Of a DNA stretch of 64,000 bases, positions 3,443-53,875 are shown piece after piece. Below the pieces are notes generated by a model. That model saw only the letters and a list, made by a program, of their open reading frames with translations. It was not told the origin of the DNA and did no database searches. The translations under genes and the position numbers were made by a program. The DNA is from Patescibacteria group bacterium (GTDB lineage: Bacteria; Patescibacteriota; Patescibacteriia; Patescibacteriales; JBAZCA01). Positions within the stretch are counted from its first letter, which is position 1. The number at the start of each line of letters is the position of its first letter. The stretch lies in the NCBI GenBank assembly GCA_041661405.1, contig JBAZUL010000008.1:3640-67639 (forward strand), written 5' to 3'.

Positions 3443-3470
3443 AAAGTATAAAGTTTTAAAGTTGAAAGTT
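3443..3470. repeat. Tandem heptamer array AAAGTAT AAAGTTT TAAAGTT GAAAGTT
   Basis: Four ~7-nt units read directly from the sequence (spacing 7/8/7). Confidence 0.7.
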
Positions 3471-3525
3471 TTTTAAAACCGGCGGGTATAACTTTTAACT
3501 TTATGCTTAATAACTCTTATCAAAG

Positions 3526-4566
3526 ATGACAGACAATAAACCGAAGACATGTATCGGCTTTATCACTTACGGGCAGGGGACGGCCAAATACCTTCCGTTT
3601 TTTCTGGCTTCGCTAAAAGAACAAACATGCTTTTCGGATCTTAAAATTTTGGCTATTGACAACAGTGAAAGGGAAGAAAACGAAAACTCGACATACCTGA
3701 AAAATCATTTTCCGGAAATTGAATTAAAATGGGTCGGCCAGAATCTCGGGTTTGCCAAAGCTTATAATATCATGATCAGCCAGGCCATAGCTGAGGGCGC
3801 GAAGTATTTCATCGCCGTTAATCCGGACATGGTTTTAGAACCTAAATTTACCGAAGAACTTATTAAAACCATAGAGCAGAATGACAAGACCGGCGCTATC
3901 CAGCCGAAAATATTAAAATGGGATTTTGAAAATAATAAAAAAACGGATCAGACTGACAGCTACGGGATATTCATTACCAAAGAGCACCGCTTCTCCGATT
4001 TAAAGCAGGGTGAAAAAGACAATCCGCCGGTTAAAGAAGTTTACGAAATTTTCGGGTTTACCGGCGCGGCCGTAATTTTTCGGCTGGAAGCGTTAGCTGA
4101 TACAGCTTATTTCAACGGGCAATACAACGAATATTTTGATGAACTGATGTTCATGTATAAGGAAGACTGCGACCTTTCTTACCGGCTGAGGCTCGCGGGC
4201 TGGAAAATATTTTTTGAACCCAAAGCTGTCGCTTTTCACGACCGAAGCGTCAGTCCGGTCGGCGAGTCGGCCATAAAAATCGCCCTGAACCGAAAAAATA
4301 AAAGCCAACAGGTAAAGAAATGGTCGTTTTTAAACCAATGGATTTTACTTTTAAAAATCAAGGATTTGCCGTTTTCTTTTCGGGTTAAACTGGCAACGGA
4401 CTGGTATCAGCTTAAAAGCCTCATTTACGCCATAATATTTGAGCCGTATCTTTTATCGGAATTTTTAAGGCTTATAAAAATTAGAAAAGAAATCGGCCGG
4501 CGGCGAGAAACCCTGAAAATGAGGATTGATATAAAAGAGATTGAAAAATTCATGAATGGCCGCTAG
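3526..4566 (+). CDS. Glycosyltransferase family 2
   Basis: N-terminal IGFITYG strand, DNSERE, NPDM, FGFTGAAVIFR and EDCDLSYRLRLAGWKI, all typical of GT-A/GT2 enzymes. Confidence 0.8.
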   Translation: MTDNKPKTCIGFITYGQGTAKYLPFFLASLKEQTCFSDLKILAIDNSEREENENSTYLKNHFPEIELKWVGQNLGFAKAYNIMISQAIAEGAKYFIAVNPDMVLEPKFTEELIKTIEQNDKTGAIQPKILKWDFENNKKTDQTDSYGIFITKEHRFSDLKQGEKDNPPVKEVYEIFGFTGAAVIFRLEALADTAYFNGQYNEYFDELMFMYKEDCDLSYRLRLAGWKIFFEPKAVAFHDRSVSPVGESAIKIALNRKNKSQQVKKWSFLNQWILLLKIKDLPFSFRVKLATDWYQLKSLIYAIIFEPYLLSEFLRLIKIRKEIGRRRETLKMRIDIKEIEKFMNGR

Positions 4567-4605
4567 AATCACGGCCAACCGGGCGGGCTAAAATCCGGAG
4601 CGTCA

Positions 4606-50887: not shown

Positions 50888-50957
50888 TCTATTAGCGCAT
50901 GTGGCGCGTTTGAGCAATCTTTGTGATTTTGTCCCGAGCGATCGGGATTTGCCGAGT

Positions 50958-52070
50958 ATGGCTGACAACAATATTCTCTATAAAATAAAAAAAGCCGGCC
51001 TGATCGGCCGGGGAGGCGCCTGTTTTCCGGTTTGGAAGAAATGGACAGCGGTTAAAAACGCGATTGATGAAAGGCCGGAAAATGACCGCAAAAGTTGCGT
51101 AATTTGCAACGCGTCCGAAGGCGAACCGGACGTAAAAAAAGATTTTTACATCCTTAAAAACCATCCGGAAAAAGTAATCGCCGGCATGCTTCTTGCTCTC
51201 GCTTATCTCGGCGCGAAGAGAGGTTATCTCTATATCAATGCCAATTACTACCGGATTCTTAGGGCAAAGTTGGAAAAAGCCGCTGACGGCACGCCGGTGG
51301 AAATCCTCGTAAAACCGTCCGGCGCCGGCTATATTGGCGGCGAGGAAACTTCAATATTGAACGCTATTGAAGGCAAAAGAATAGAGCCGCGCCTTAAACC
51401 GCCTTTTCCTTTTAAAGCGGGTCTTTTCGGACTGCCGACGCTTTTAAATAACGTTGAAACATTCTATAACGTCGCTTTGGTAGAGGAAGGTTCTTACCGG
51501 CCCGACCGCTTTGTTACGATTATTGAGCAATCGCCCAAACCAACCTTTAAAGCCTTTGCCCGGCTGAGAAAAATAACCAAAAGGGAGGTTTTTTTATTTC
51601 CCGAAGACTGGACAATGGAAAAAATCCTGAAAAAATCCGGCCGCTTACCCTCGTACAAATTTTTTGTACAGCTGGGCGGGGGAGCGAGCGGAATGGTTTT
51701 AAATTCCAGCCAGCTTAAAAACCCGCTCGCCGGCTCCGGCTCAATCACTATTTACAACCTTGAAAACCACGATCCGATGGAACTGATAAGACAATGGATC
51801 GGTTTTTTTTACGGCGAATCCTGCGGAAAATGCGTGCCTTGCCGGGAAGGGACTTTCCGCGTCAAAGAACAGCTGGAAAAAAACGATGTTAACTGGCCGC
51901 TCGTTAAAGAGCTGCTGAATAACCTGGCTGAAACGTCTTTTTGCGGCCTCGGCTGTTCAGCGCCAATCGCCATAACCAGTTATTTTAAAAATGTCTTCCC
52001 CTTAATTTCCGATAAAAATAACGTACTGGCTTCAAGCCAATCAAAAACGGTTTGCGAATGTTTTTCGTAG
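50958..52070 (+). CDS. NuoF-like NADH-binding flavoprotein (hydrogenase HydB-type subunit, minimal form)
   Basis: GLIGRGGACFPVWKKW, CNASEGEPDVKKD, GGEETSILNAIEG, LLNNVETF and the N3 cluster motif GESCGKCVPCREG. I prefer ATG 50958; the tracked start is GTG 50901. Confidence 0.85.
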   Translation: MADNNILYKIKKAGLIGRGGACFPVWKKWTAVKNAIDERPENDRKSCVICNASEGEPDVKKDFYILKNHPEKVIAGMLLALAYLGAKRGYLYINANYYRILRAKLEKAADGTPVEILVKPSGAGYIGGEETSILNAIEGKRIEPRLKPPFPFKAGLFGLPTLLNNVETFYNVALVEEGSYRPDRFVTIIEQSPKPTFKAFARLRKITKREVFLFPEDWTMEKILKKSGRLPSYKFFVQLGGGASGMVLNSSQLKNPLAGSGSITIYNLENHDPMELIRQWIGFFYGESCGKCVPCREGTFRVKEQLEKNDVNWPLVKELLNNLAETSFCGLGCSAPIAITSYFKNVFPLISDKNNVLASSQSKTVCECFS

Positions 52071-52084
52071 AATTGTCTCTCGGT

Positions 52085-53875
52085 ATGCTTAAAAAAATCA
52101 CCATAACCATAAACGGAAAAAAAATACAATGCTCTCCGGATGAGACTATTTTTAAGGTGGCTAAAAACAATGACATAGAAATTCCCGGATTGTGCGGCCA
52201 TCCGGACTTTCCGCCCAAAGCCAACTGCCGGGTCTGCGTCGTGGAAATCAAAGGATACAATAAGCTCGTTACCTCATGTTCGGAAAAAGCAACCGACGGA
52301 ATGGTTATCAGTACAATAAGCGAACGCGTTAAGAAGGCAAGGAACCTTAACCTTGAGCTCATATTTGCTGAACATATTGAAAAATGCCCGACCTGCGCCA
52401 TAAATTTTAGTTGCCGCCTGCTTTATTACGCCGAAAAATATAAAATTGAAGTCCGGCGCTTCGGGGAGCGCAAGACAGAACGAAAAACCTATAAATTCGC
52501 CAATGCCGTGGAAATTGACGGATCCCAGTGCATTGACTGCCGTAATTGCGTTGACGCCTGCTCCATGCTCCAAAAAATAAATTACCTTGAAATCAAAGGA
52601 AAAGGAATAAACCAGGAAATAACACCGTCAAAAGATCTGGAAGTGGATTGCATCTATTGCGGGCAATGCGCCCTCCATTGTCCGGTAAACTCAGCCGCTG
52701 AACAGAGCGAATGGCAGGAGGTGGAAAAATTACTGCAAAATCCGGGCGACAAAAAGCTCGTCGCCATGTTCGCGCCTTCAATCCGGGTATCAATCGGCGA
52801 GGAATTCGGCTTGCCTTACGGCAAAGTTGTTACCGGCCAGCTCGCGGCCGCCTTAAGGAAACTCGGGTTTAATTATGTTTTTGACGTTATTTTCGGCGCC
52901 GATATTACAACCGTGGTGGAGGCCAGCGAGTTGGTAACCAAATTAAAGGCCGCAAAACAAATAACCGGCGATCAATCGGCAATCGGCAATCGGCAATCGG
53001 CAATTTCCCATCTGCCTATGATTACTTCCTGCTGTCCGGGCTGGGTAAAATACGCGGAATTCTATCATCCTGAACTCCTGCCTAACCTCACTTCCGCCCG
53101 ATCGCCGCACGTCCACCTGGCCGGAGCGATAAAAACTTACTGGGCGGAAAAATCAGGCATTGACCCTAAAAATATAATTACTGTTTCTATCATGCCTTGC
53201 ACGGCAAAAAAGTTTGAGGCCATACGGAAAGAATTGGCGGTCAACGGAGCGCGGCCGGTTGACCATGTCCTTACGACGCGGGAATTCGCCTTTCTTTTAA
53301 AAAGGAATAAAATAAGCTTGGGAAAACTAAAACCGGAAAACTCGGACAACCCCGCGCGCGCCGGAAAAAGCGATCCCAATTCCGGCGCAATCCAACCGAA
53401 CGGCGCCGGTTCCATCTACGGGGCTTCGGGCGGAGTGATGGAGTCGGCTCTGCGAACCGCCGCCGCGCTTATATGCAAAGGCGATAAAATTTGCGATAAT
53501 AGAATTGACTTTAAGGAGGCCCGGGGCATGGAAGGCGTTAAAGAGGCTGACGTAACAATTGGCGGCCATAAGCTAAGAATTGCCGTGGTTAACGGCATTG
53601 GCCATATTAGCCCAATCATAAAAAAACTCGCTGATTATGATTATATTGAAGTCATGGCCTGCCCGGGCGGCTGTATCGGCGGCGGTGGCCAACCCATCCC
53701 GACCACCCCGGAAATCCGCCGATTGCGGGCCGAAGCCCTTTATAAAATTGACAAAAACGCCCCGCTAAGAAAGGCTCATGAAAATAAAGGAGTGATGGAA
53801 ATTTTAAAATGGCTAAAGACCAAGGGCAAGCTGGAATCGCAGGTTTTGCACACTAAATATATTAAACGCGGTTGA
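52085..53875 (+). CDS. hydA: [FeFe]-hydrogenase catalytic subunit (CpI-like domain architecture)
   Basis: N-terminal 2Fe-2S domain (CGHPDF..CRVCVVEI); EHIEKCPTCAINFSC; two ferredoxin motifs (CIDCRNCVDAC, CIYCGQCALHCP); H-cluster motifs TSCCPGW, MPCTAKKFE and ACPGGCIGGGGQP. Confidence 0.92.
   Translation: MLKKITITINGKKIQCSPDETIFKVAKNNDIEIPGLCGHPDFPPKANCRVCVVEIKGYNKLVTSCSEKATDGMVISTISERVKKARNLNLELIFAEHIEKCPTCAINFSCRLLYYAEKYKIEVRRFGERKTERKTYKFANAVEIDGSQCIDCRNCVDACSMLQKINYLEIKGKGINQEITPSKDLEVDCIYCGQCALHCPVNSAAEQSEWQEVEKLLQNPGDKKLVAMFAPSIRVSIGEEFGLPYGKVVTGQLAAALRKLGFNYVFDVIFGADITTVVEASELVTKLKAAKQITGDQSAIGNRQSAISHLPMITSCCPGWVKYAEFYHPELLPNLTSARSPHVHLAGAIKTYWAEKSGIDPKNIITVSIMPCTAKKFEAIRKELAVNGARPVDHVLTTREFAFLLKRNKISLGKLKPENSDNPARAGKSDPNSGAIQPNGAGSIYGASGGVMESALRTAAALICKGDKICDNRIDFKEARGMEGVKEADVTIGGHKLRIAVVNGIGHISPIIKKLADYDYIEVMACPGGCIGGGGQPIPTTPEIRRLRAEALYKIDKNAPLRKAHENKGVMEILKWLKTKGKLESQVLHTKYIKRG
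52973..53007 (+). repeat. In-frame heptamer array inside hydA (CAATCGG x4 plus a degenerate unit)
   Basis: CAATCGG CAATCGG CAATCGG CAATCGG CAATTTC, encoding ..QSAIGNRQSAIS.. It lies about 10 codons upstream of TSCCPGW. Confidence 0.95.

Follow-up and report, generated by a model that had tools for sequence, protein, structure and literature searches.

What generates short tandem arrays of 7-nucleotide (nt) units immediately in front of start codons, in a genome where Shine-Dalgarno sites can hardly be recognised, and do such arrays act on the genes that they precede? The question is raised by a 64,000-nt stretch of DNA from a Patescibacteria group bacterium (contig JBAZUL010000008.1, positions 3,640 to 67,639), which was analysed as a whole and is called the window below. 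The closest SerRS relatives of the window belong to Candidatus Moraniibacteriota (Parcubacteria, Patescibacteria), the best match in a genome collection sharing 68% amino acid identity. That bacteria contain heptanucleotide tandem repeats in excess has been on record since 1990 and 2007, and their preference for start codons has been known since 2015. A preliminary description of the window had listed at least 14 heptanucleotide loci and read them as elements like the short tandemly repeated repetitive (STRR) sequences of cyanobacteria, concentrated at start codons, also present in frame in essential genes, and carried by a host of the candidate phyla radiation (CPR). This reading is supported: the finding is real and correctly interpreted, and the comparative setting in which it occurs is unusually informative.

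The observation of heptanucleotide arrays is confirmed. All 14 loci exist at the positions listed, and at 12 of them units of 7 nt run head to tail with an offset-7 identity of 0.70-1.0. Arrays were detected with Tandem Repeats Finder (TRF) and with a self-offset scan (score of at least 12), using 30 dinucleotide shuffles as the control for chance. The self-offset scan of the window gives four arrays of period 7, seven of period 14 and two of period 21, against 0.0 in the shuffles, and every remaining period from 4 to 20 gives 0 or 1 array; TRF calls periods 7, 14 or 21 at 7536, 10600, 10680, 15615, 25774, 27475, 29979/29985, 30153, 36049, 42269 and 52973. The excess extends to relatives, with sums over 44 related loci of 29, 33 and 20 for periods 7, 14 and 21 and of 1-13 for any other period. 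Array density is about 2 per 10 kb (64 kb of the window genome and ~80 kb of sister species). The intergenic arrays hold 3-6 mostly imperfect units (offset-7 identity 0.54-0.87), and four of them are weak as tandem repeats alone: the one at 3443 (TRF period 8, identity 0.76), the three-unit array at 17443 (0.71), and those at 19100 and 19151 (0.54 and 0.57). For three of these there is further support, as 3443 has an inverted partner at 3487-3504 and the hairpin formed by 19100 and 19151 is kept in a sister species. The coding arrays in gltX and hydA are perfect repeats, and both arrays in murG follow a 14-nt super-unit that is perfect in the first and 0.88 identical in the second. Contigs of the window strain derived from other samples carry the same sequence: all six units of the serS array are identical in ENA and Logan assemblies (99.97-100% nt identity to the window), and a JGI contig that begins inside this array matches its last units and is 100% identical along its whole length. 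Arrays that recur unchanged in independent assemblies are therefore not assembly artefacts, and their complete absence from the shuffles rules out chance. No copy-number polymorphism is visible among these near-identical assemblies of the window strain, or among those of a sister species (species B, below) from different samples.

Placement is strongly biased. In a census of 747 kb (the window and 45 non-redundant related Patescibacteria loci), 49% of 95 arrays fall in the non-coding 16% of the sequence. Twenty of the 46 intergenic arrays end at most 12 nt from a start codon, whereas random intergenic placement gives 5.2±2.0 (300 trials, maximum 12), which bears out the proposed enrichment. 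In the window itself, the seven arrays said to end 0-5 nt from a start codon do so, at the distances given in Table 1. They open Pfam-supported genes, namely those for a GT2 glycosyltransferase, a PEGA protein, an ABC-2 permease, a Wzy-like ligase, GreA, SerRS and a LigB/Memo-like protein, and several arrays occupy the entire spacer between co-directional genes. Shine-Dalgarno regions are, as had been claimed, mostly unrecognisable: a Shine-Dalgarno-like 4-mer precedes only ~7 of 63 window genes and is lacking from six of the seven start-adjacent leaders, the exception being an AGGA within the 10600 array itself. Across Patescibacteria, serS leaders are A/T-rich and have no Shine-Dalgarno site. 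Array density is 1.5 per 10 kb where Shine-Dalgarno use is below 20% and 0.29 in the seven loci above this value, a difference that is not significant; the anticorrelation between the two is a trend only (Spearman -0.23, p = 0.12). On the sense strand, start-adjacent arrays contain 47% A and 10% G, compared with 37% and 15% in ordinary leaders.

Two further features of start regions were observed. TATAAT-like hexamers show a marked preference for ending 6-8 nt before the ATG. At 6, 7 and 8 nt they number 17, 8 and 10 among 161 genes of other CPR loci, 8, 6 and 1 among 163 genes of Moranbacteria loci, and 2, 0 and 3 among 36 genes of the window (examples precede the starts at 1152, 22432, 36129 on the minus strand, 54894 and 60733 on the minus strand, and occur in loci L025, L031, L038 and L043). 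Because these hexamers cluster so close to the ATG and Shine-Dalgarno sites are nearly absent, the sequences suggest that leaderless mRNAs are common in Patescibacteria. The second feature is a pentamer repeat, (AACTA)x3, at window positions 46306-46320, 5 nt before the ATG at 46326; a leader resembling AAACTAAACTAAATAAAAAC also precedes gene 44711. Short repeats next to starts are thus not strictly confined to 7-nt units.

Roughly half of the intergenic loci are inverted pairs, in which an array is followed by a loop of ~16-25 nt and an inverted array. The preliminary description had noted inverted partners at two loci; both are present, but the window has four such pairs (3443/3487, 7506/7537, 10680/10600 and 19100/19151), so that hairpin arms had been undercounted. 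In the window and the sister species, inverted pairs fold at -13.8 to -45.1 kcal/mol (z -2.2 to -6.8), and the 3' arm of the hairpin ends 0-12 nt before the AUG. The single arrays at 15615, 27475 and 36048 are not structured in themselves: folding of the serS and LigB leaders is no more stable than that of shuffled controls (z -0.2 and -0.4), and the ABC-2 array itself is unpaired. Intrinsic terminators were considered and rejected, as no U tract follows any hairpin, mixed sequence leading directly to the AUG, and a scan of the greA leader gave none. Known RNA families do not account for the hairpins either, Rfam giving only RNase P RNA in the window; there are no tRNAs in the window. This class A bacterial RNase P RNA (135.8 bits) lies at 37888-38404. 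Downstream of it, at 38426-38495, a perfect 14-nt inverted repeat (TAATTAGTGATTAG / CTAATCACTAATTA) is followed by a direct repeat of 16-nt period that ends 4 nt before the ATG at 38500, a hairpin-before-start architecture like that of the arrays but without the 7-nt period.

The arrays turn over rapidly between sister species. Species B (L048, L051, L052, L178) shares 86-89% nt identity with the window over most of L048, with one segment at 74%; species C (L176, L177) comes from the same samples as the window strain and shares 91% MurA identity; L055 is a more distant relative, with 79% SerRS identity. Species B and C have only periods 7, 14 and 21, save single arrays at 13, 18 and 19 (L051 of species B has three, five and two arrays of periods 7, 14 and 21 and nothing else), and L055 has no array in 13 kb. 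Between species ~10% diverged, arrays differ or are missing at most orthologous junctions. The PEGA leader holds an AAATCCC hairpin pair in the window, an AAAGTTA pair in species B and an AATTGAT pair in species C. In the greA leader, the CGCGTAA-type pair of the window has a homologous pair in species C, with 22/22 base pairs kept and the loop diverged, whereas species B has a pair of AGACGAC/AGAAAAC type. In front of serS, (TAATTGA)6 of the window corresponds to an AGACGAC-type pair in species B and to a spacer of only 2 nt in L055. At the ABC-2 junction, the GC hairpin and AAATTCC array of the window, a block of 50-60 nt, are entirely absent from species B, where stop and start overlap as ATGA, and species C has an unrelated ACATAAC/GTTATGT pair whose last unit holds the ATG. 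The GT2 leader (7566) has four units in the window and a two-unit seed in species C, and the AATTGTA-type array at 36048, in the LigB/Memo-like leader, is matched in species B by an inverted pair of AAATTTC type. Most large indels between the sister species are in fact whole array or hairpin blocks of 50-100 nt, placed exactly between stop codon and ATG; junctions that lack a block have 1-3 nt between the genes or an ATGA overlap. Three junctions that measure only 1-7 nt in the window also hold blocks elsewhere: the GT4 junction (species B), the one at 14.8 kb (both sister species) and the one at 13.2 kb (species C). One clean 7-nt difference of a single unit separates species B and C. Gene content differs as well. 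About 4 kb from gltX to the AP-endonuclease gene (window 42700-46880, genes 42930-46745, compared with L048 3022-3290) is missing in species B, which has only a small PQ-loop gene in this interval; between murG and murC, species B carries a GH3 glycosidase, a DNA methylase and a HindVP-type restriction enzyme that the window does not have.

The four arrays described in frame in murG, gltX and hydA lie in the coding sequences of MurG, GluRS and [FeFe] hydrogenase. Both MurG loops contain arrays of 14-nt period in the window and in species B, with different units and nearly equal length; at the position of the second loop, species B has (ACAAATCAAAAATC)x2.9. The gltX array keeps its copy number in species B over ~11% divergence, with one substitution. 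The hydA array sits within an insertion of 17 aa (51 nt) that neither species B nor the solved HydA structure 8a6t contains. In the GT4 gene of species B, an array of (ATGCGTT)x3 followed by ATGCGGA spans the orthologous start codon and adds exactly 21 nt. Elsewhere, the CTP-transferase-like gene of four Moranbacteria (L010 7848, L011 2802, L013 5024, L022 7437) contains (CAAGAAA)3, encoding IKKQETRNKE. This array aligns without gaps to non-repetitive orthologues, and 7-nt periodicity has therefore overwritten a coding segment of conserved length. The idea that all coding arrays are insertions is accordingly rejected, since (CAAGAAA)3 and both murG arrays replace sequence at unchanged length.

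Table 1. Heptanucleotide arrays of the window and the features associated with them (minus-strand units in sense orientation).
Feature	Position	Strand	Context
Array AAAGTAT AAAGTTT TAAAGTT GAAAGTT	3443-3470	+	Left arm of inverted pair, 9 nt past stop of gene 2636-3433; 55 nt from its ATG
Inverted partner TATAACTTTTAACTTTAT of 3443 array	3487-3504	+	Hairpin -18.2 kcal/mol, z -2.2; ATG 3526
Short inverted partner ATCAATTTATCAA of 7537 array	7506-7518	+	
Array TTGATAA TTGATCA TTGAAAA TTGATTA	7537-7564	+	1 nt before ATG 7566, GT2 glycosyltransferase
Array ATTAGGC ATTGGAA ATTAGGA ATTGGGA ATT	10600-10630	-	Abuts ATG 10599 (0 nt), PEGA-domain protein; hairpin 3' arm
Inverted partner AAATCCC AAATCCC	10680-10701	-	Directly past murA stop; pair -27.9 kcal/mol, z -2.7
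Small GC hairpin upstream of ABC-2 array	15600-15613	+	
Array AAATTCC AAATTCC AAAAACC AAATCCC AAAAA	15615-15647	+	1 nt before ATG 15649, ABC-2 permease
Weak three-unit array CCCGTAA CTCATAA CACGTAA	17443-17463	+	Overlaps stop of gene 16467-17456; 1 nt before ATG 17465, Wzy-like
Left arm of greA-leader hairpin, CGCGTAA type	19100-19134	+	
Right arm of greA-leader hairpin	19151-19185	+	4 nt before ATG 19190, greA; fold -26 kcal/mol
Short weak array GAAAATT GAAAATT TAAAAT	25774-25793	+	Inside iPGM gene
Six-unit array, TAATTGA type	27475-27518	+	5 nt before ATG 27524, serS; fills 42-nt spacer after CTP-transferase-like gene, whose TGA stop sits in unit 1; unstructured, z -0.2
In-frame array (CAGAAAACAGACGA)x2.4, encodes AENRRQKTDDRN	29979-30012	+	Variable MurG loop
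In-frame array (AATCACCAATCCCT)x2.7	30153-30199	+	Second MurG loop
Array AATTGTA AATTGAC AATTGTA AATTGAA	36048-36075	-	3 nt before ATG 36044, LigB/Memo-like
Perfect in-frame array (AGACGAC)x4.4, encodes KTTDDRRQTTD	42269-42299	+	gltX (GluRS)
Perfect in-frame array (CAATCGG)x4.6	52973-53004	+	hydA ([FeFe] hydrogenase)

The units belong to at least five or six unrelated families, among which AGACGAC/AGAAAAC, CGCGTAA, AAATTCC and AATTGAT recur. The claim that word families are reused at unlinked loci holds: within the clade, an exact 7-mer is common to both arrays in 46 pairs from different sites, whereas permuting the columns of the units gives 14.1±3.6 such pairs (1000 permutations, maximum 25). 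For example, (TGTCGTC TGTTTTC)2 is antisense in the murG loop of the window and sense directly before the greA and serS starts of species B. Between loci, only 25-37 nt of array arm are alike (89-96% identity), and the loops are unrelated. A vocabulary of heptamers common to the whole phylum is weak, at 90 sharing pairs against 74±7 when distant Patescibacteria are compared. Neither do arrays generally grow from the heptamer at the start codon. Single examples exist (ATGCGTT x3 in the GT4 block of species B, GTTATGA in species C), yet over 21 start-adjacent arrays, agreement with the unit consensus is no higher in the 14 nt that follow the array than in the flank before it (4.1 vs 4.4). Heptamer arrays are patchy and nevertheless widespread in Patescibacteria, including Levybacteria and other classes, and there too an ATG often follows their end after 2-12 nt. 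When metagenomes were scanned for GACGACAG-N5-AGACGACAG, at least 120 loci with GC contents of 0.30-0.69 matched; among the matches listed, most are true AGAnGAC arrays, many have an inverted partner, and several are followed by an ATG after 0-30 nt or closely by a Shine-Dalgarno site. Arrays of this kind are thus cosmopolitan.

The arrays are best read, with somewhat better than even confidence, as STRR-like heptanucleotide simple-sequence arrays that come from slippage in 7-nt steps and from template switching, and that are tolerated at gene junctions and in in-frame loops. The sequence comparisons show the 7-nt periodicity, the placement of the arrays, their hairpins, their rapid turnover and the frame filter on coding arrays; such an origin, and likewise any effect on expression, we infer from them. 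Replication slippage with a 7-nt step would create and homogenise runs of units, including the 14- and 21-nt super-units, and would be active in this Moranbacteria clade and patchily in other Patescibacteria. The 14- and 21-nt periods and the single-unit difference between species B and C fit unit-wise duplication. Template switching across hairpins could then copy an array into its inverted partner. Blocks would persist only between a stop codon and the next ATG, where they split genes otherwise 0-3 nt apart or overlapping, or in variable protein loops where the frame is kept; a genome that is ~91% coding, with tightly packed operons and no Shine-Dalgarno site to preserve, would let them survive in those two places only. 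A junction array would become the mRNA segment immediately 5' of the AUG. Single arrays would provide an A-rich, G-poor leader no more structured than shuffled sequence, and inverted pairs a stable hairpin with its 3' arm 0-12 nt before the AUG. Such a hairpin should uncouple the two cistrons and modulate access to the start codon or the processing and stability of the mRNA.

Several observations weigh against this explanation. Local slippage alone leaves the sharing of unit families between unlinked loci unexplained, and it does not account for unrelated families at one junction in different species, as in the PEGA leader or at the ABC-2 junction, where two species have different blocks and the third has none. 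The data give no reason for a step of 7 nt. Interspecies gaps show a weak peak at this length, with six gaps of 7 nt against five, five and two of 5, 6 and 8 nt. Finally, hairpin pairs occur in the PEGA and greA leaders of all three species, and the greA stem is conserved while its loop is not, which hints at selection for structure. Since a small pool of unit families is used again at unlinked loci, and since unrelated blocks independently occupy one and the same junction, a selected leader function, or else mobility or templating, is kept under consideration.

It is possible, if rather doubtful, that the arrays are selected cis-acting leader elements that replace the Shine-Dalgarno sequence. 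The repeated units would serve as binding sites for an RNA-binding factor that acts in trans, such as ribosomal protein S1 or a cold-shock-domain protein, or the hairpins would mark internal starts, for instance as RNase sites that create leaderless cistrons. Adjacency to starts well beyond chance in a genome without Shine-Dalgarno sites speaks for this explanation, and the PEGA and greA hairpin pairs, retained in the three sister species despite complete replacement of their sequence, agree with it, as do the conserved greA stem, the use of few word families at many loci, the A-rich and G-poor sense strand, and the -10-like hexamers upstream of many ATGs, which suggest common leaderless initiation. 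The same idea has been put forward for TAACTGA repeats (PMC4679880) and for Nostoc heptamers (10.1101/2022.06.06.494920). However, most arrays are unconserved at ~10% divergence, and many junctions have neither an array nor a replacement signal. Five or six or more unrelated families are hard to square with one binding factor, the same families occur in coding loops and on either strand, and word sharing with distant Patescibacteria is weak. The one alignable hairpin, that of greA, has no compensatory changes, and the bias of A over T on the sense strand is not significant (14/21 arrays, compared with 53.5% of ordinary leaders).

The blocks might instead be miniature mobile elements of the miniature inverted-repeat transposable element (MITE), REPIN or Correia type, with heptamer arrays as arms, whose repeated insertion and excision leave 7-nt duplications. 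This is unlikely. The presence or absence of whole 50-100-nt blocks between sister species, the different occupants of the ABC-2 junction and the families common to several loci would all follow from mobility; in addition, a 9-nt direct repeat, AAGCGGAAT, flanks the GT4 block of species B, and AATAT(A/G)A-like 7-mers occur at the ABC-2 junction. But similarity stops at the array arms and no full-length copies were found, which rules out classical MITE copies; flanking direct repeats occur at two of the four junctions examined, with no duplication at the 14.8-kb junction; no transposase or reverse transcriptase is among the Pfam matches listed for genes of the fetched loci; and coding arrays replace sequence at constant length. 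In unrelated metagenomes, (AGACGAC)n does lie within a multi-copy element with conserved flanks, of the form ...CCTGAGTAGGGCGCACGAACGTTACA[array]...CATATAGCGAACATGAAC... (loci L062-L134, many from samples Ga0056xxx, Ga0209562 and Ga0209780, the arrays often at contig ends). This is probably a mobile element that bears a heptamer array in unrelated bacteria. A literature search for the (AGACGAC)n string found no paper.

In a more speculative proposal, which we consider improbable, hairpins of heptamer arrays would be an actively propagated intercistronic 'punctuation' of the Moranbacteria clade studied here, and perhaps of many other Patescibacteria that lack Shine-Dalgarno sites. Members of a small pool of families would be set immediately 5' of internal starts by a copying or templating process dedicated to this task, the hairpin serving as a pseudo-5' end or RNase cleavage site for leaderless-type initiation. 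If this were true, the 7-nt step would reflect the machinery that makes the elements and not generic polymerase slippage.

A role of the DNA itself, with the arrays as promoter modules or as repeated binding sites for proteins, is very unlikely; one such model has (TTGATAA)n self-phased to give TTGATA, 17 nt and GATAAT. The arithmetic works for TTGATAA-type units: in the serS array, TTGAAA (27485-27490) and GATAAT (27508-27513) are 17 nt apart, transcription is predicted to start ~4 nt before the ATG, and many genes of the group appear leaderless. Self-phased promoters are nevertheless rejected, since the required spacing fails at the 7537 and 36048 arrays, likeness to promoter hexamers is confined to the AATTGAT family (AAATTCC, CGCGTAA and AGACGAC have no promoter-like content) and a consensus scan gives no promoter in the greA leader; the arrays in coding loops also speak against action as DNA. 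Contingency loci, in which copy-number changes of 7 nt switch or tune adjacent genes as the (ATCTTTC)n tract of hmwA does (PMC8262952), are most improbable here: four of the seven start-adjacent arrays precede envelope or polysaccharide genes (GT2, PEGA protein, ABC-2 exporter, Wzy-like ligase) and species B and C differ once by a single unit, but the tracts are short and mostly imperfect (3-6 units, against 13-24 perfect ones in hmw tracts) and do not vary in copy number among near-identical assemblies (99.9-100% identity) of the window strain or species B, on which grounds such a role is unlikely, and in addition the gltX copy number is constant between species and housekeeping genes (serS, greA) are also preceded by arrays.

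The clade offers an unusually clean natural experiment: with very small, tightly packed genomes and no Shine-Dalgarno signal that could confuse the picture, it lets arrays be compared as they appear, disappear and are exchanged at the same stop/start junctions of three sister species, two of which were recovered from the same samples. In this setting, slippage versus mobility, function at the RNA versus the DNA level, and the cost of perfect tracts in gltX, murG and hydA become testable with metagenomes and metatranscriptomes that already exist. There are practical consequences too. Arrays can break assemblies, contig L003 beginning inside one, and they distort gene calling through starts inside arrays and artificial N- or C-terminal extensions. 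Gene callers disagree where arrays hold an ATG or lack stops (L048 243-272; L176 6113-6140; L051 9431-9545; L013 5284-5327). Conflicting calls include 5315..6112 versus 5315..6124 and a CTP-transferase of 171 aa in species B versus 137 aa in the window, and in L013 a C-terminal extension is read-through of an array. The MurA open reading frame (ORF) listed at 10701-12014 on the minus strand encodes 437 aa, ~4 codons more than most homologues, many of which have 433 aa; its true start is probably the ATG at 12002.

Heptanucleotides are the commonest class of long simple-sequence repeat (SSR) in many bacteria, and polymerase slippage has been proposed as their source (Mrazek 2007, as relayed in PMC4679880 and PMC4692102). 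The arrays of the window resemble STRR elements and long SSRs in form: 7-nt units in tandem, in few copies and with several families to a genome, lying mainly between genes and sometimes within them, patchy in their spread over lineages and over-represented relative to other unit lengths. They differ in their units, in the reduced CPR genome that carries them, in having 3-6 units and in their many inverted pairs. None of the published heptamers (STRR1-3, TAACTGA, GGGAATC, ATCTTTC) is in tandem in the window. The STRR units CCCCAGT, TTGGTCA and CAACAGT have 3-6 single occurrences there, and TAACTGA has two. The arrays are therefore of the same kind as the cyanobacterial families but are not those families, and of the label STRR-like the tandem 7-nt kind, its over-representation and its dispersed families stand, while the resemblance is one of form.

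TAACTGA arrays are the closest parallel in position, as they lie a short way upstream of start codons where Shine-Dalgarno sites are scarce, in marine Beggiatoaceae, some Cyanobacteria and Bacteroidetes, and some overlap upstream stop codons or lie in ORFs (MacGregor 2015, PMC4679880). Both systems end a few nt from starts without a Shine-Dalgarno site, in part overlap the upstream stop, and have a few members in ORFs, including that of MurG. In contrast, one heptamer dominates there (169 sets in one genome) and nearly all arrays are direct, whereas the window clade uses its several families with frequent inversion. The Xanthomonas and Nostoc heptamers GGGAATC/GGGGAYT (Rehm et al. 2015, PMC4692102) share the intergenic location, some stem-loop inverted pairs, and variation in length and sequence at the same sites between close genomes, but they are G-rich and capable of forming G-quadruplexes; the present units are A/T-rich or mixed, with no G-quadruplex. 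In Nostoc PCC 7120, heptamers near the recF and recO starts likewise comprise several heptamers in 3-8 contiguous copies, within 30-100 nt of starts or overlapping them, and deletion of the repeats changed reporter expression (Pradhan et al. 2022, 10.1101/2022.06.06.494920). Their host is cyanobacterial, they sit among LexA and NtcA boxes, and that study reports no comparative turnover data. The Haemophilus influenzae hmwA tract also places tandem heptanucleotides between promoter and coding sequence, where phase variation tunes expression (PMC8262952); unlike the short arrays described here, which are stable among near-identical strains, it is hypervariable and has a proven effect. REP/REPIN and Correia elements are similar as intercistronic hairpins of 50-100 nt with presence/absence polymorphism, but in the present blocks the arms have a 7-nt period, no conserved full-length copies or defined termini were found, and the Pfam matches listed for genes of the fetched loci include no transposase. 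A literature search gave no paper linking heptamer repeats to CPR/Patescibacteria, in agreement with the preliminary description. Start-adjacency of heptamer arrays in Shine-Dalgarno-poor regions is already known (PMC4679880, 10.1101/2022.06.06.494920); the CPR host phylum is new.

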